6,325 bases of DNA from the IMG/VR virus record IMGVR_UViG_3300020030_000091, positions 1-6,325 of that record; one strand, written 5' to 3'. How positions within the stretch are numbered: the stretch's first letter is position 1; every line of letters begins with the position of its first letter. Source of the stretch: a virus. The notes beneath the pieces were generated by a model. It was not told the origin of the DNA and did not search any database. It was given only the letters and a program-made list of their open reading frames with translations. Below, piece after piece: positions 122-4,845 of the stretch. The position numbers and the translations under genes were made by a program.

Positions 122-347
122 ATGTAGGGAGAAACTGTGGAGCATAAGTAAGAGTAACAAAATACACATAACGGAACTGGGCAGAATAAGTAGTAAGCAA
201 GTTAGTCTGAATACCAGAACGACGAAGGATACAAGAAGGACAATGCCCACAAGAAACAACAACGGGCTCATGTGTATACTTGTTGACAACCGTGCGAGGA
301 TGCTGACAACGAGTCACTAACTTATTCTGCAATTCCTTAGTAATCAT
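1..347 (-). CDS. VP4: Replication initiation protein VP4 (HUH rolling-circle endonuclease), N-terminal 115 codons plus 2 nt. It continues at 6204 after circularisation.
   Basis: My own translation from the ATG at 347..345 gives MITKELQNKLVTRCQHPRTVVNKYTHEPVVVSCGHCPSCILRRSGIQTNLLTTYSAQFRYVYFVTLTYAPQF... It contains the Cys/His cluster C14-H16...C33-G-H-C36-x2-C39 typical of microvirus VP4 N-termini. RCR motif 1, FVTLTY, lies at 144..161. The ORF is not in the track because it runs off the window edge. The frame joins 6204 exactly: ...FRSV-P(cc|t)-RSSSVR-L(ttg at 6185). Confidence 0.88.
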   Translation of the reverse strand, partial: MITKELQNKLVTRCQHPRTVVNKYTHEPVVVSCGHCPSCILRRSGIQTNLLTTYSAQFRYVYFVTLTYAPQFLPTLEVSVVETCTDDIADVPCVPNIDDLDAGDPNTYLFGFRSV

Positions 348-652
348 TTTCTATCAGTAAAATCAAGTTCCATCAGACGAGCCTTGCGACAACGTGCAAA
401 AGAAACGTGAACAAAAGTCCGATACTTTATAAGCTGGTCAAATTCAAAACCAGAATTTTTGATTTTCAAAATAAAATCATCCACTGAGATATCAAGAGGT
501 TTCAAATCAACAGCATCACCAGTCAGATGCTGGGAATTAGCAGAACCTCCACACGCTTCATTCTCTTTCTTAGTACGAAGAGCAGAAGTAACAGAGAAAT
601 GAAAGTTCCAACGAAGGAGCCATTCAATGAATTTCATTAATGCCGGATTCAT
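344..652 (-). CDS. Minimal M15-family (Peptidase_M15_3 / VanY-like, LAS-fold) zinc peptidoglycan peptidase; putative endolysin
   Basis: The 102-aa ORF carries the family signature TSALR-x4-N-x3-GG-x3-SQH-x2-G-x-A-x-D ... FDQLI ... FVHVS. The predicted zinc ligands are H42 (527..529), D49 (506..508) and H82 (407..409). The stop TGA (344..346) overlaps the VP4 ATG (345..347) as ATGA. No signal peptide or TM segment is visible. Confidence 0.8.
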   Translation of the reverse strand: MNPALMKFIEWLLRWNFHFSVTSALRTKKENEACGGSANSQHLTGDAVDLKPLDISVDDFILKIKNSGFEFDQLIKYRTFVHVSFARCRKARLMELDFTDRK

Positions 653-655
653 GAC

Positions 656-745
656 TTACGAAAATATTTGAGCAATAGACGTAAGGAGGCTAACAGCAGC
701 GGCGATAACTGCAGACCAAATTTTAGATTTAGTTTCACTTTTCAT
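656..745 (-). CDS. Unannotated 29-aa single-pass membrane peptide (MKSETKSKIWSAVIAAAVSLLTSIAQIFS); candidate holin-like or lysis accessory protein
   Basis: Hand translation runs from the ATG at 745..743 to the TAA at 658..656. The N-terminus MKSETKSK is lysine-rich and is followed by a hydrophobic stretch of about 20 residues. The ORF fills the otherwise unexplained gap between the 65-aa ORF and the peptidase. It overlaps the 65-aa ORF's 3' end by 11 nt and ends 3 nt before the peptidase ATG. It is too short for the ORF track. Confidence 0.4.
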   Translation of the reverse strand: MKSETKSKIWSAVIAAAVSLLTSIAQIFS

Positions 746-932
746 CAGGAATTGCTTTAAAGGTTGAACAATGAGAAATAATAAGCAAACAATCAGGGCG
801 AAGATGCGAAGAAACAAATGCAGAAACTTCGTCAACAGGAACGAGAATAGTTTCGTTCTGAGTAGGGGTTGTTTTTGATTGAACGGAGCACAAATAATAC
901 TTTTCCATAAATTTGAATTTTAAATTAGACAT
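735..932 (-). CDS. Hypothetical 65-aa protein, the first ORF downstream of the predicted promoter
   Basis: The ORF is on the coding strand. Its ATG at 932 is preceded by the A-rich leader TTTAAAAACA. It is packed against the next ORF. I recognise no motif in it. Confidence 0.5.
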   Translation of the reverse strand: MSNLKFKFMEKYYLCSVQSKTTPTQNETILVPVDEVSAFVSSHLRPDCLLIISHCSTFKAIPDEK

Positions 933-1220: not shown

Positions 1221-1320
1221 GAAGGCAGTACTATAGCCTGGCGGCTCTGATTCCAGTCCTAACGTCCCGGAATTCAGGGGGTGTATAACCACGCTACGCG
1301 CGGTTGCCGGAAGTTACTCC
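1221..1320. other. GC-rich island with short helices inside the noncoding region; function unknown (candidate ssDNA origin, ncRNA or attachment element)
   Basis: My hand count gives 57 G+C in 100 nt. That compares with about 18 percent for 961..1020 and about 38 percent in a sampled coding stretch (3001..3060). A hairpin at 1287..1305 on the minus strand (AACCGCGC-GUA-GCGUGGUU) has 8 pairs including one G.U. The same position is an A.C mismatch on the plus strand. Confidence 0.45.
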
Positions 1321-1357
1321 AAACAACAAAACCCGGCACGTATCAAGTACGACCGGG
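1321..1357 (-). terminator. Rho-independent terminator downstream of VP2
   Basis: The minus strand reads CCCGG-U-CGUA-CUUGA-UACG-UG-CCGGG (1357..1332), with 5 bp plus 4 bp stems and a 5-nt loop. It is followed directly by UUUUGUUGUUU (1331..1321). It lies about 20 nt after the VP2 stop TAG (1377..1379). Confidence 0.6.
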
Positions 1358-1376: not shown

Positions 1377-2474
1377 CTAATGCCGAGAAAAGGACTTAGA
1401 AATAACTCTACGAGGCAAGAAATTGCCTATAGTATTACCAATGCTAGTGCCATATTCGACCCATTTATCAGCATCAAAATACCTATACCTTTTCTTTTCA
1501 TTTCGAGAACGATACCATTCCTCAATATTCTTACTGCGAGCATTATCTTGAGAAAGACCAAGCCTGAGTTCTTCCTTATGATAAGCCGCAGAAGATTCAT
1601 TAGCCGCAATATTGGCAGCAATTTGAGACTCAGCAATACGAGAAGCAACTTCATTAGAAATATTTTGACCACGAGTTCGAGCAGCAGCCAAAGCTTCTTC
1701 AGCCAAAGATTTTTTAGCTTCAGCATAAGAAAGATAACCAGAAGACATGCGCTGGTAGTAATCCGCAGCCTTAACATTTAGGTCAAATTGTTGTTGTTGG
1801 TCAAGATACTTGTTCAAAACGCCTTTAGCCTCATTATCAAGAAGCATACCAGAACGTTGAGCACGCATAATAAGACCGGTCATTGCCAGGTTATCAACTT
1901 CTTGTTGTTCCTTAGCGTAACCAAGTTGAGCACGAGCTAGTCCAGTAGACCTCAAATAATTACGAGTTTCATCAGTAAGCTTTCCCCAATCAATATTAGA
2001 GAGGGTTTCCATGGCTTTAGCATCAGCAAGTTGTCTAGCGCCTTGCAATTGAGACTTTTCAGATTGCATCAACTCATATTGAAAAATATTGCCAATAGAA
2101 GAACCGACACCAGAATAATCAGCCTGAAAAGGTTGCATAACAGCACTTCCAGAAGAAGAAGCAGAAGCACCAGTACCAGCTGATTGAGCAACACCAGCTG
2201 AACCTCCGTTCATCATCAGATAAGGATTCAAACCAGCTTCCTCGAGACGTTGGCGTTGGGCAGAAGCAGTGTTATAAGCATTTTCCTTATTCCACATATT
2301 TTCCTGCCAATTACGCTGCTGTATCGCCATAAGTTCGTTAAACTGGTTATTCATCTGATTGATTTTGTAATTCATCTGGTTAGTCTCCTTGACATTTTGT
2401 CTATTCTGCGAATTTTGAATAGAAGAAGAGCCAGCACCAAGAAGACCACCAGCGATTGAACCAAAAAGACCCAT
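1377..2474 (-). CDS. VP2: VP2 minor capsid / DNA pilot protein (functional analogue of phiX174 H)
   Basis: The 365-aa ORF has a Gly/Ser-rich N-terminus and an Asn/Gln-rich segment. It then has the motif NWQENMWNKENAYNTASAQRQRLEEAGLNPYLMM, which matches the conserved VP2 core of gokusho- and alpa-type microviruses (..W.E.M.N.AY.....D...AGLNP.L). The C-terminal half is Ala/Glu/Gln-rich and looks coiled-coil-like. The start ATG (2474..2472) overlaps the upstream stop as TAATG. Confidence 0.85.
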   Translation of the reverse strand: MGLFGSIAGGLLGAGSSSIQNSQNRQNVKETNQMNYKINQMNNQFNELMAIQQRNWQENMWNKENAYNTASAQRQRLEEAGLNPYLMMNGGSAGVAQSAGTGASASSSGSAVMQPFQADYSGVGSSIGNIFQYELMQSEKSQLQGARQLADAKAMETLSNIDWGKLTDETRNYLRSTGLARAQLGYAKEQQEVDNLAMTGLIMRAQRSGMLLDNEAKGVLNKYLDQQQQFDLNVKAADYYQRMSSGYLSYAEAKKSLAEEALAAARTRGQNISNEVASRIAESQIAANIAANESSAAYHKEELRLGLSQDNARSKNIEEWYRSRNEKKRYRYFDADKWVEYGTSIGNTIGNFLPRRVISKSFSRH

Positions 2475-2956
2475 TATTCAGAGGAAGCAGCATCAGCGGA
2501 AGCAGCAGCCGCTTTTTCTGCCTCTTGTTTAGCATTTTCAGCATCAATCAAATCCCGGGCCTGGGCTTCAAGATTTTCAGCATAAGCCGACAAGTCCTTA
2601 GACCAGGCAATAATTTCAGAAGGAGACTGAACATGACGGGAACGAACCGTTGACAAAAGGTCATCATCAGACATCGTATCCATAATCTGCTGAATCTGGG
2701 ACACAGATTGCCTGGTTTGTCCGAACCTGGAAGCAACGGCAAGACCAGCACGGGAAGCCAAGTCCTTGGTATGAAGAATCAAACGGACATCAGAAGTGTA
2801 ACGAACAGGACGAGTTTCGTCAGAATCGTCAATTTCTACACGAAGGCTCTCGGTAGAATCGAACTCGGGAGCAACTGCAAAAGCATCCGGCGCAACATTG
2901 GGAATAAGCCCGGAACCTTGTTCCAGACTATTCAAAGAATTAAATTTTCCAATCAT
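2474..2956 (-). CDS. Hypothetical acidic 160-aa protein; by position and size possibly an internal scaffolding (VP3-like) protein
   Basis: The ORF lies between VP1 and VP2 on the coding strand, with its ATG 14 nt after the VP1 stop. It has acidic clusters (EIDDSDE, MSDDDLL) and an Ala/Glu-rich C-terminus. Its stop TAA shares one base with the VP2 ATG. The scaffold assignment is inference only. Confidence 0.6.
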   Translation of the reverse strand: MIGKFNSLNSLEQGSGLIPNVAPDAFAVAPEFDSTESLRVEIDDSDETRPVRYTSDVRLILHTKDLASRAGLAVASRFGQTRQSVSQIQQIMDTMSDDDLLSTVRSRHVQSPSEIIAWSKDLSAYAENLEAQARDLIDAENAKQEAEKAAAASADAASSE

Positions 2957-2970
2957 AATTAAAACAAATT

Positions 2971-4845
2971 TTAGTAAGGTACACCATCGCGAGACAAATT
3001 ACGGGCAACATAGCAACCAATATAGGAATTAATCAACAATTGGTCAGTATCCCAAGTAGAATCGGCATTAACGCCAAAAATAGGATCAAGAACAGAAGGG
3101 TTAACCTTGAAGAACTTATAATTCAAAACAACCCTAGTATTTTGATTAATATCACCATCAGAGTATCCAAAGCCAAACCATCCGGAAAGGAGAGATTCAG
3201 TAACCGGAGAAACCCAAGACTTAAGAGTAGTGGTAAAGGCACCGTTAATAACATCAAGCTTTGTCTTCCAATTATAATAACGAGGATTATAACCGGCATT
3301 AAACAAAGCGACAATAGAAGCTTTCGGAGAGTTGAAAATCTGTGTCATAGGAAGAACTTCCATGCCGATATTATCAAACTCCGGAATCGGGAGAGACTCA
3401 GCATCAGTAACAAGTAACTGACCATCCTGACCGGTCAAAGTATAATCAAGAAGAGGAACGGCATGATAAATACACATAACGACACAATGCTCATTAGTAG
3501 TATATTCAAAGGTTCCATTACCAGCACCGACACCCTTACCGGCAATAACAGCAGTATCTCCTTCTGTAGCAAGGTTATTATTCACAACCTCACTGATGTC
3601 AAGGTTACGGGAAATACCACCGATATAGGTGCACATATTGGAAAGAGCCTGGGGCAAGTTCACACCAAAATGTTTACGAATTTGTTCGCGGTAGTCGCTA
3701 TCACCAGATTGGCTGATTTCTTTCCAACGTTGAAGAGCTTCAGCCTGGCGAAGTGCAAGAACAGTGAACTGAGATTGCAAAGTAGACAAATCAACACGAA
3801 GAGAAGAACCAGAGGGAACAGTATTAGAAGTAGAAGCCTCTAAAGCAAAGAGAGGAACCGCAGAAGTCTTAGAAGAAACTGCAGAAGTAATACCAACTTT
3901 ACTCTTTTTGGAATCAGAACCTAAAACAACATCAGAAGCGCCAGAATCGGAAATATCAATAACAGCGACATCGCCAAACTGAGAATTCGGGAGAACACCC
4001 ATCAACAAATCCTTGTTCCAATTACAATATTTAAGGTCAAACATTGTATCGGAGTCCCAATAAGCATCACCAAGACCAGGAAGAGAAGATACCAAAGGAC
4101 CAGTAACACCGCTATAATAATCCACATTATAAGAAGATGGATTAGCACTTTCCCACTGCGACCAACGGAAAAAGTCCTGATAAATTTTCTGATAGGCCAA
4201 GAGAGGGAAAACATTCACATAATTATTCTGAATATATTGCTGAGAATAACTCTCTGAAGCAGTCTCATTCTTTAAAGAAGTAGACCACCAACGACAACCA
4301 GGAGAAGGCTTTGTCTCAATAAAATTCCCGTAGCCAAGATAAGATAATAACTTATAGGACAAATCGGCACGATAAAAACCAAACATGTTTCTTAGCGAAG
4401 AGTCAAAACCTGGATTCGCACTTGTCCCATTCATAATAACAAGAGCAGTGCTGAACATATTGATAGGAAGCGAGGGTATATAAGTGCCAAGAGTCAAGTT
4501 CTGAGAAAGGGACAAAGCTTGAACCTTATTAACATCCTGCATCTGAGTCAACACAGAAGGAGCAGACTTCCAGAGAAGACGCAACGGCACAGCATAAAAA
4601 TCAAAGTATTCACGCAACCGGGTATAAGCAGAAGTTTCAACAGGTTGAGTACGGGTAAAGTACTCGATACTGAGCCTATACTTATCTCCAGGCATAGAAA
4701 TATCCCAATAGACGGGAAGAAGCTCACCAACCTTTGCGGTAAACGCATTTTTACGTCCAATATCAAATCCAGAACGGTGAGGGTGATTCTGGAGATTGGA
4801 CATTCCAGTGTAAGAAGCCATAAAAAAACATTTAGAATTAAACAT
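2971..4845 (-). CDS. VP1: VP1 major capsid protein (F-like jelly-roll capsid protein of Microviridae)
   Basis: The ORF is 624 aa. Its N-terminal signature HPHRSGFDIGRKNAFTAKVGELLPVYWDISMPGDKY fits the conserved microvirus capsid pattern S.FD.....T...G.L.P.......PGD. The size is typical of alpa-type VP1. The true start may be the ATG at 4821 or 4803 rather than 4845. The first 8 codons include a T7 run, and MSNLQNHP resembles usual capsid N-termini. Confidence 0.93.
   Translation of the reverse strand: MFNSKCFFMASYTGMSNLQNHPHRSGFDIGRKNAFTAKVGELLPVYWDISMPGDKYRLSIEYFTRTQPVETSAYTRLREYFDFYAVPLRLLWKSAPSVLTQMQDVNKVQALSLSQNLTLGTYIPSLPINMFSTALVIMNGTSANPGFDSSLRNMFGFYRADLSYKLLSYLGYGNFIETKPSPGCRWWSTSLKNETASESYSQQYIQNNYVNVFPLLAYQKIYQDFFRWSQWESANPSSYNVDYYSGVTGPLVSSLPGLGDAYWDSDTMFDLKYCNWNKDLLMGVLPNSQFGDVAVIDISDSGASDVVLGSDSKKSKVGITSAVSSKTSAVPLFALEASTSNTVPSGSSLRVDLSTLQSQFTVLALRQAEALQRWKEISQSGDSDYREQIRKHFGVNLPQALSNMCTYIGGISRNLDISEVVNNNLATEGDTAVIAGKGVGAGNGTFEYTTNEHCVVMCIYHAVPLLDYTLTGQDGQLLVTDAESLPIPEFDNIGMEVLPMTQIFNSPKASIVALFNAGYNPRYYNWKTKLDVINGAFTTTLKSWVSPVTESLLSGWFGFGYSDGDINQNTRVVLNYKFFKVNPSVLDPIFGVNADSTWDTDQLLINSYIGCYVARNLSRDGVPY

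Follow-up and report, generated by a model that had tools for sequence, protein, structure and literature searches.

The 6325-base window, i.e., the whole stretch of DNA analysed here, represents a microvirus genome that is circular and 6204 nt long, 121 nt being duplicated at the termini; the minus strand carries every gene of this genome (Table 1). The nearest GenBank records, Dulem virus 236 and 257 as well as bajarodmic virus 410 and 1134 (DNA ~83 % identical), are faecal microviruses from lemurs and desert rodents. Directly upstream of a predicted M15 peptidase, the first-pass annotation had noticed an apparent gap of 82 nt (653-734) occupied by a small ATG-initiated open reading frame (ORF29). 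The size of the gap is correct, and the geometry described for the ORF (ATG at 745, 11-nt overlap with the upstream gene, 3-nt spacer to the peptidase) was found in the sequence in all its parts. ORF29 and the peptidase share one reading frame in the window, and the peptidase stop overlaps the ATG of Rep (ATGA, 344-347). The upstream gene had been taken as an ORF of 65 aa. Its overlap with ORF29 stood up, but the 65-aa form starting at 932 did not, since its first 8 codons are not conserved among relatives and conservation begins only at the internal ATG at 908 (ORF57). ORF57 has no match in Pfam or PHROG and is annotated as hypothetical protein in GenBank relatives. A TTG-extended, 59-aa form of ORF29 (656..835) with two hydrophobic segments was rejected, because the extension carries stops in several relatives.

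Table 1 Features of the microvirus genome in the 6325-base window
Feature	Position	Strand	Remarks
Rep/VP4	starts 347, across circle junction, ends 4848	(-)	
Major capsid VP1	4845..2971	(-)	
Scaffold-like gene	2956..2474	(-)	160 aa
Pilot VP2	2474..1377	(-)	
Non-coding stretch	after VP2, before small gene 932/908..735		444 nt
ORF57	735..908	(-)	57-aa gene (MEKYYLCS...PDEK); conserved; always directly upstream of ORF29
ORF29	656..745	(-)	29 codons + TAA, ATG start; MKSETKSKIWSAVIAAAVSLLTSIAQIFS
ORF29 basic head	722..745	(-)	codons 1-8, MKSETKSK; net charge +2; presumably on the cytoplasmic side
ORF29 predicted transmembrane helix	662..721	(-)	codons 9-28; IWSAVIAAAVSLLTSIAQIF
Overlap of ORF29 start and ORF57 end	735..745	(-)	11 nt; same in 41/41 relatives measured
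Spacer GTC	653..655	(-)	3 nt, from ORF29 stop to peptidase ATG (652-650)
Peptidase_M15_3	344..652	(-)	102 aa; putative endolysin without signal peptide

The product of the downstream gene contains a Peptidase_M15_3 domain (Pfam E 2.2e-13, 50.7 bits versus a cut-off of 23.2) and matches the endolysin group PHROG 894 (E 1.5e-17). The motif residues R26, H42, D49 and H82 are present; R26, H42, G45 and D49 are invariant in the peptidase alignment (A1), and H82 is conserved within FVHVSF. The statement made at first pass that this 11.7-kDa enzyme has no secretion signal is borne out by its N-terminus, which is charged (K7, E10, R14) and belongs to the catalytic fold (residues 5-84 align to positions 29-108 of the Pfam profile), and therefore offers neither a signal nor a transmembrane (TM) segment. 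The solved structure nearest by sequence is ChiX of Serratia marcescens (5opz), with a weak match (E 0.1, residues 2-54 only). ChiX is an M15 L-Ala-D-Glu endopeptidase working with the holin-like ChiW. The latter is much larger than the ORF29 peptide and belongs to a holin family, and the ChiW/ChiX system serves protein secretion, not phage release. The arrangement in the window had also been likened to the lysis cassettes of tailed phages, and tailed-phage M15_3 genes indeed adjoin TM proteins too. In one tailed-phage contig (L224), an 85-aa single-TM protein overlaps the start of a peptidase that is 44 % identical to the peptidase of the microvirus mar63 (see below).

As a bare sequence, ORF29 represents no more than chance on the T-rich coding strand: among its ATG-initiated ORFs of 25-45 codons, two include a TM-like stretch (composition-matched shuffles 1.7 +/- 1.3), and the probability of 28 further codons remaining open by chance is 0.20. 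Its reality therefore rests on conservation. Conservation in frame and in position beside the M15 gene, on which the first-pass annotation had made its proposal depend, was found in two differently ascertained sets of relatives (together clade i). ORF29 is intact, with exactly 29 codons, ATG and stop, in 41 of 42 relatives found via the peptidase (68-93 % identical); the remaining one is disrupted (L015, stop at codon 4 plus frameshift). Likewise, all 61 IMG/VR contigs ascertained by a degenerate DNA pattern for the mid-ORF29 peptide, each a ~6.2-kb microvirus, carry an intact ORF29 followed by the peptidase. Pooled dN/dS (Nei-Gojobori) is 0.10 in the ORF29 frame, whereas reading the same DNA in the two remaining sense frames gives 1.65 and 1.93; the flanking peptidase and ORF57 genes have values of 0.20 and 0.22, respectively. 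Amino-acid identity within clade i amounts to 93 % for ORF29 versus 76 % for the peptidase and 76 % for ORF57. These comparisons show that ORF29 is a real gene on which purifying selection acts strongly, and that it is more constrained than its neighbours.

It is hardly credible, by contrast, that ORF29 arose by chance in a T-rich spacer between genes and has been conserved through another function of the DNA or RNA. Such an origin would agree with the chance-level expectation for the ORF alone, and the low dS of ORF29 in clade i (0.30 versus 0.64-0.80 in the neighbours) hints at some constraint at the nucleotide level. No conserved RNA structure was found that could cause the low dS (143 nt, -10.8 kcal/mol; 26 predicted pairs, 2 with compensatory change), nor was any Rfam family found in the window. 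Start, stop and 29-codon length are retained in more than 100 genomes, and the peptide of a second clade (see below) is still conserved at a saturated dS of 1.13. Substitutions are overwhelmingly synonymous in the ORF29 frame only, and this frame-specific pattern already contradicts a chance ORF.

The GenBank relatives leave the 82-nt gap unannotated, and metagenome gene callers gave spurious long forms only. A search with the 59-aa extended query returned 32 close relatives, all of them mis-called long forms named 'hypothetical protein', and tblastn with the clade i peptide gave zero matches, probably owing to low-complexity filtering. In a search for the host, the ORF29 DNA pattern had no match among 185,579 species genomes. 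A corresponding search with VP1 yielded no more than a pair of contigs from marine gammaproteobacterial assemblies, which are short (1.4 and 1.9 kb) and probably represent contamination. Contigs of 12-13 kb carrying ORF29 were considered as prophages and rejected, as they are tandem assemblies of the phage.

The lysine-rich N-terminus and the single hydrophobic helix of about 20 residues described at first pass were both found in the sequence. Residues 10-28 are membrane-competent on two hydrophobicity scales (Wimley-White octanol sum -5.7 kcal/mol; mean Kyte-Doolittle 1.78), i.e., a TM helix is predicted. Trp10 directly follows the basic head region, of which K2, K6 and K8 are invariant across 12 aligned ORF29 variants, and the peptide ends one residue past the helix. 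Gly, Ala, Ser and Thr account for 47 % of the helix, and the polar residues S11, S19, T22, S23 and Q26 share one helix face (hydrophobic moment 1.13 versus 0.50 in shuffles, p 0.013). According to the positive-inside rule, the N-terminus would be located inside and the C-terminus outside. Identity with the microvirus DNA-binding protein J/VP8 was considered and rejected: J/VP8 is a very basic small protein without a long hydrophobic stretch, whereas ORF29 contains a 20-residue hydrophobic helix, and only 3 of its 29 residues are Lys (net charge +2).

A counterpart of ORF29 is present in a second group of microviruses (clade ii; Dulem virus 226, 237-243, 254, 255, mar56 and others; 35 GenBank records), the peptidase of which is 40-50 % identical to that of the window. 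Clades i and ii share exact synteny, with an ORF of 26-29 codons at the ORF29 position in clade ii. Its product follows the pattern M..(K/R)xN(I/L)W(K/R)(I/L)IIGAVSAALGY(I/V)LNx(I/L)GL, in which IIGAVSAALGY is invariant at dS 1.13. At this saturated dS, dN/dS of the peptide is 0.115, compared to 0.41 for the N-terminus of the peptidase. The residues K/G/S/G/Y/N/G at matching helix positions mostly lie at wheel angles of 180-320 degrees, i.e., on the same face. The end of the clade ii ORF and the start of the peptidase gene overlap by ATGA, and the peptidase is therefore in a different frame from the peptide. In Dulem virus 238, 243 and 226, the 'peptidase' of the GenBank record is wrongly extended across this ORF, in the wrong frame.

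Further relatives were reached via a 45-nt non-coding match to Dulem virus 262, which has no peptidase and contains an annotated 30-aa protein (MSKKNTWRTILEVIGAVISAVLGALGASSL) just before VP1. Using this protein as tblastn query, two more clades were reached. Clade iii comprises 15 peptidase-less Dulem records (246-251, 262). In the three clade iii genomes inspected whole (Dulem virus 262, 249 and 247), neither an M15 homologue (tblastn, seven M15 queries) nor a Pfam lysin domain was found. In clade iv (bajarodmic virus 633, 145 and 540), a peptide of 28-29 aa is encoded directly downstream of a 162-166-aa M15 peptidase, and the two genes overlap by ATGA in bajarodmic virus 633 and 145. The same search reached bajarodmic virus 324, 971, 1012 and others, in which the peptide has no peptidase nearby.

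Many of these peptides match the Pfam family PF20096 (DUF6486). Scores of 27.3-45.8 bits (hmmscan; gathering score 22.7 bits) were obtained for clades iii and iv and for bajarodmic virus 324, 1012 and 145, the best scorer being bajarodmic virus 324 (45.8 bits); bajarodmic virus 540 (19.3) and 971 (21.8) are just under the threshold. PF20096 is a family of about 31 residues with no function assigned, for which no mention was found in the literature searched. It equals ORF29 in size and has the same architecture (basic head, often with N-W, and a small-residue-rich helix reaching to the C-terminus), and its hosts are gut microviruses, i.e., the same kind of genome as the window. However, neither the window ORF29 nor the clade ii peptide matches PF20096, even at E <= 10, and both differ from DUF6486 in that the ...LGALG... 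motif at the C-terminus is absent, as is the Glu/Lys found in the L(E/K)VI stretch.

Smith-Waterman comparisons clearly relate the sequences of clade iii both to those of clade ii (z 6.8-9.5) and to those of clade iv (z about 11). For clade i, the links are weaker. They reach p 0.003-0.008 against clade ii and z 3.4-4.6 (p 0.001-0.007) against bajarodmic virus 324, the peptide of which has the head motif S-E-x-x-S-(K/R)-x-W-S in common with ORF29, and are not significant against Dulem virus 262 and bajarodmic virus 1012. Aligning clade i to the family with hhalign gave E 2e-4 (47 % probability), and with an HMM of clades ii-iv on clade i only 1.6 % of architecture-preserving decoys score higher. 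Since clade i stays below the Pfam threshold, yet has these weaker links together with the synteny to clade ii, its ORF29 is regarded as a probable rather than proven, divergent member of the DUF6486-linked peptide family. DNA patterns used to sample clades iii and iv more widely gave 0 matches in IMG/VR and 1 real match in the JGI metagenomes, and nothing was found with a padded clade iii protein query.

The order and frame of the genes in these clades bear on the notion that the helix is a SAR-like N-terminal anchor of the peptidase, the two being joined by stop-codon readthrough across TAA GTC. The common frame and the 3-nt spacer, present in the window and in 53 of the 61 IMG/VR relatives, would allow for this, and the Gly/Ala/Ser/Thr content of the helix is like that of SAR domains. 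A potential precedent is provided by one genome, bajarodmic virus 550, where an in-frame hydrophobic extension without intervening stop precedes the annotated peptidase start; this extension is not corroborated, since the relatives of this peptidase in IMG/VR (~12-kb contigs, one of 8 kb) have no TM segment. Against an anchor, the stop codon is retained in every intact ORF29 copy, and the remaining spacers of the 61 relatives measure 9, 13, 16, 21, 32 and 56 nt, so that the frame relation between ORF29 and the peptidase is not conserved. In 5 of 61 clade i genomes the frame is interrupted by spacers of 13, 16, 32 or 56 nt, the peptidase of clade ii is in another frame throughout, and in clade iv the peptide is located downstream of the peptidase. 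Given the conserved stop and the broken frame, ORF29 was not assigned to the SAR endolysins, and readthrough is considered very improbable.

The association of the peptide with M15 genes is recurrent in sequence and in place. The peptide adjoins M15 genes from two subfamilies that are mutually only 35-37 % identical, and its gene precedes that of the peptidase in clades i and ii, where the pair lies between VP2 and Rep, but follows it in clade iv, where the pair lies between Rep and VP1. On the other hand, in the sample available for co-occurrence (GenBank viromes from few animal studies plus IMG/VR), at least 24 microvirus records of GenBank contain a DUF6486-related peptide without an adjacent annotated peptidase. 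Moreover, mar63 possesses the peptidase (53 % identical) and a counterpart of ORF57, with the peptide absent from its whole genome. No further mar63-like genome (peptidase without peptide) was found in IMG/VR, and mar63 therefore stays a single case. Together, the peptidase-less records and mar63 imply that the coupling of peptide and peptidase is not obligate.

The proposal of the first-pass annotation, a holin-endolysin-like pair, is thus partly supported. In its favour, two divergent clades have a real gene for a membrane-type peptide beside that of an M15 peptidase without signal, and in a third one (bajarodmic virus 633, 145 and 540) a related peptide adjoins a different M15 subfamily. 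An obligate pair is not supported in view of the DUF6486 peptides without peptidase and the mar63 peptidase without peptide, and the peptide has neither the size of a holin nor its hydrophilic C-terminal tail. Holin families have roughly 60-150 residues and a hydrophilic, charged C-terminal domain, and are usually fast-evolving; pinholin S21 68 and the holins with a single TM domain (TMD) are small membrane proteins beside a signal-less muralytic enzyme. ORF29 resembles canonical holins in being small, in having at least one predicted TM domain and in its gene lying beside a putative endolysin, and also in the small-residue-rich helix, the polar face of which would suit oligomerisation. It differs in that described holins are more than twice as large, in having neither a charged C-terminal cytoplasmic tail nor a dual-start antiholin, and in showing no dependence on an endolysin (DUF6486 relatives without detectable lysin), as well as in being very strongly conserved. 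To our knowledge, 29 residues without a C-terminal tail are unlike any described holin, and no single small helix is known to open enzyme-sized holes. The conservation of ORF29, the highest in its neighbourhood, fits a specific protein partner better than a holin. Microvirus genomes have few sites that accept inserts, and the adjacency of ORF29 and the peptidase could partly reflect insertion sites.

A two-part lysis module in a phage of this kind had been considered unusual at first pass. Peptidoglycan hydrolases are already known in microviruses, and it is the small membrane partner that appears unreported in the literature searched. Microvirus M15_3 peptidases were proposed as endolysins by Roux 2012, without a membrane partner and without mention of a holin (PMC3394797). 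In the taxonomy of Kirchberger 2022, M15_3 genes are lysis-associated accessory genes, and overprinted and very small genes were explicitly omitted (PMC9239249). For phage Ebor (Tainavirinae), Gp7 was verified by zymogram as a peptidoglycan hydrolase, the first such for microviruses, and Gp1 is a 45-aa predicted membrane protein with no assigned function; the word 'holin' is absent from this report (PMC11980548). Going by these descriptions, Ebor resembles the window as a microvirus with a murein hydrolase and a very small membrane protein, and differs in that Gp1 and Gp7 are not listed consecutively.

The reading preferred here, with moderate confidence and as the one that accommodates all of these cases, is that ORF29 represents a membrane-acting lysis effector with an activity of its own, beside which peptidases were recruited, and that it is holin-like where a peptidase is present. 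Expression would proceed from the ORF57-ORF29-peptidase-Rep string, probably by translational coupling (11-nt overlap, 3-nt gap). ORF29, a presumably divergent but positionally orthologous member of a family of microvirus peptides of 26-33 residues, would be translated as a 29-residue bitopic inner-membrane peptide. Its Lys-rich head (residues 1-8) would be cytoplasmic with Trp10 at the interface, and the ~20-residue Ala/Ser/Thr-rich helix with its Ser/Thr/Gln stripe would span the membrane, leaving essentially no periplasmic tail. The peptide may build up in the cytoplasmic membrane and self-associate by its small-residue/polar face, and the resulting assemblies may then depolarise or permeabilise the membrane. 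Where an M15 peptidase has been recruited, the lesion would let the signal-less enzyme reach the murein, corresponding to a holin-like role. Some relatives have no peptidase, and there the peptide would therefore have to act alone. Topology, oligomerisation, membrane lesion and any lysis role are what we infer for ORF29.

A wider reading is put forward more tentatively. The family of ~30-residue peptides (ORF29, clade ii and DUF6486) might constitute the long-missing lysis effector of the non-phiX microviruses, beside which M15 peptidases were repeatedly recruited; we lean somewhat against it. In that case, and with the same reserve, one may speculate that the minimal peptide kills the host and opens its membrane alone, and that the M15 genes were captured from bacteria or tailed phages.

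Lysis by a small TM peptide need not involve a membrane lesion. The 91-aa protein E of phiX174 blocks MraY, and phages with such single-gene lysis (Sgl) by definition have no muralytic enzyme. Similarly, ORF29 could act as a 'protein antibiotic', its helix binding and blocking a membrane-bound enzyme that supplies murein precursors and the M15 peptidase being an optional helper once the envelope fails; this is judged unlikely. Sgl peptides are like ORF29 in being tiny single-TM products of minimal single-stranded-genome phages that annotation easily misses; LysM of levivirus M, a single-TM Sgl peptide that blocks MurJ, has 37 aa (PMC12506998). An action of this type could explain lysis in the peptidase-less relatives, where DUF6486 peptides would be the sole lysis candidate in microviruses without detectable muralytic enzyme, and a specific conserved host target would suit the extreme conservation (93 % identity and dN/dS 0.10 in clade i; invariant IIGAVSAALGY in clade ii). 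However, ORF29 has no sequence similarity to known Sgl, a target cannot be inferred, the gene does not lie nested within another one, and a muralytic enzyme adjoins it. The recruitment of peptidases beside the peptide in at least two arrangements would be left unexplained and counts against an Sgl, because signal-less enzymes would be useless without a membrane lesion. The window ORF29 was thus not classified as Sgl/amurin: its genome encodes an M15_3 peptidase, and absence of the enzyme holds only for the peptidase-less relatives.

A role outside lysis is also improbable. Conceivable functions of a small membrane protein include superinfection exclusion, DNA delivery or membrane-associated assembly, or modulation of burst size, as in the case of phiX174 K. 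The position of ORF29 would then merely reflect the few insertion-tolerant gaps of a microvirus genome. This would agree with DUF6486 peptides being widespread whether or not a peptidase is present, and with mar63 coping with the peptidase alone. Furthermore, the 45-aa membrane protein of Ebor is not adjacent to the verified lysin (PMC11980548), and the majority of small TMD-containing ORFs assayed from ssRNA phages were not lytic, 178 of 293 candidates having no plating effect on inducing medium upon expression in E. coli (PMC7693330). An insertion hotspot alone, however, poorly predicts that the adjacency to M15 recurs at positions before and after Rep, involves two subfamilies and shows both gene orders, and the overlaps of start and stop codons suggest co-expression.

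The finding bears on an acknowledged gap. Microviruses outside the phiX174 group have no gene E, only some of them have a captured peptidase (PMC7062461, PMC3394797, PMC9239249), and their mode of lysis has been stated to be unknown, with no known lysis gene (PMC7062461). ORF29 provides a concrete lysis candidate, encoded by a gene of 90 nt that was missed or mis-called in public records (empty gap, wrong-frame extension of the peptidase, or longer non-conserved start). The ORF29-linked DUF6486 peptides come from microviruses of lemur and rodent faeces, and the ORF29 clade adds about 100 metagenomic contigs. If not lytic, ORF29 would still be conserved among microviruses and deserve to be called by annotation pipelines. 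If lytic, it would be of practical interest as a minimal peptide that disrupts membranes, and would provide a function for Pfam DUF6486. Should the peptide family indeed prove to be the missing effector, it would comprise the smallest holin-like protein known and explain lysis by many gut microviruses.

The small gene ORF29, which encodes a conserved membrane peptide of 29 residues and directly precedes the M15 peptidase gene, is obscured in public records by mis-called starts. In three related genomes (Dulem virus 238, 243 and 226; L183, L184 and L186, respectively; locus 838-904), the GenBank CDS starts 21 codons too far upstream, with the extension running through the conserved small peptide gene in a frame of its own, and the extended CDS is labelled 'peptidase' or 'hypothetical protein'; the ATG at 901, inside this CDS, is the start that is conserved. 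Two JGI metagenome contigs (L225 and L226; 13.4 and 12.4 kb) represent related microvirus genomes assembled head-to-tail at double length. Of the two genome copies in L226, one was given a spurious, extended ORF29 of 58 aa by the gene caller and the second the 57-aa neighbour, and it is therefore clear why the 29-aa gene is missed.

Among the window and its close relatives (clade i), the synonymous divergence of ORF29 (dS 0.30) is less than half of that in the neighbouring genes (0.64 and 0.80), and several of its codons are invariant, e.g., S23 (TCT) and F28 (TTT), each in 41 of 41 sequences. This low dS could result from a recent recombinational sweep of the segment or from an element acting at the nucleotide level; a search for conserved RNA structure that would account for it yielded none. 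A single relative, L015 (IMGVR_UViG_3300045988_021117), carries a broken ORF29, with a stop at codon 4 and a later frameshift upstream of the peptidase at 3001. The peptidase itself is intact in this contig; either an error in sequencing or a knockout that arose naturally could account for the break.

ORF29 is always preceded by the gene for the 57-aa protein (see table), which has no match in Pfam or PHROG and may be part of the same module. The equivalent position is occupied in each case by another-looking protein of 58–73 aa in clade ii (peptidase 40–50 % identical to that of the window), in mar63 (peptidase without peptide) and in the peptidase-less Dulem genomes of clade iii.

Two diverged genomes with a further M15 subfamily of 154–161 aa (bajarodmic virus 387, L197; Dipodfec virus UA23Rod_920, L199) each contain an ORF of 43–44 codons about 50 nt upstream of the peptidase gene, encoding a head with charged residues (…D(K/R)L(L/I)(R/K)(V/I)(I/L)) followed by a long hydrophobic stretch; possibly this product acts as an independent, small membrane partner. 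In bajarodmic virus 550 (L198), the peptidase is annotated as starting at 697, and an in-frame ATG further upstream would extend it by MRNTRNFQTPLLSFLFSGIVLIINLV, i.e., a basic head and a hydrophobic segment joined to the enzyme without an intervening stop, an arrangement seen in this single genome and uncorroborated.

VP1 fragments with 68–71 % identity to the gut-type microvirus of the window are encoded on short contigs in two marine gammaproteobacterial genome assemblies, those of Saccharospirillum alexandrii (contig NZ_RCIP01000014.1, L227; 1.9 kb) and Marinomonas arctica (contig NZ_QHJF01000070.1, L228; 1.4 kb). They more likely reflect contamination of sequencing runs than point to a host.

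Features of the window adjoining ORF29 and in the region downstream of VP2
Feature	Position	Strand	Remarks
57-aa protein gene (MEKYYLCS...PDEK)	735-908	(-)	conserved, dN/dS 0.22
45-nt element	1279-1323		non-coding, between VP2 and 57-aa gene; coding-strand sequence TTTGGAGTAACTTCCGGCAACCGCGCGTAGCGTGGTTATACACCC
GC-rich hairpin	1320-1358	minus	GCCCGGTCGTACTTGATACGTGCCGGG then TTTTGTTGTTT; ~18 nt after VP2 stop

The 45-nt element, which contains a short hairpin and has no match in Rfam, is present with at most 4 mismatches in 45 of 58 clade i contigs. It recurs at 100 % identity in Dulem virus 262, likewise in the VP2-Rep intergenic region; this genome is otherwise unalignable to the window by megablast and has no peptidase. 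The element could serve as an origin, a promoter or a recombination site. The GC-rich hairpin following the VP2 gene has the appearance of an intrinsic terminator; it was not picked up by a simple terminator scanner. If it does act as a terminator, the genes for the 57-aa protein, ORF29, the peptidase and Rep would form a separate transcription unit.
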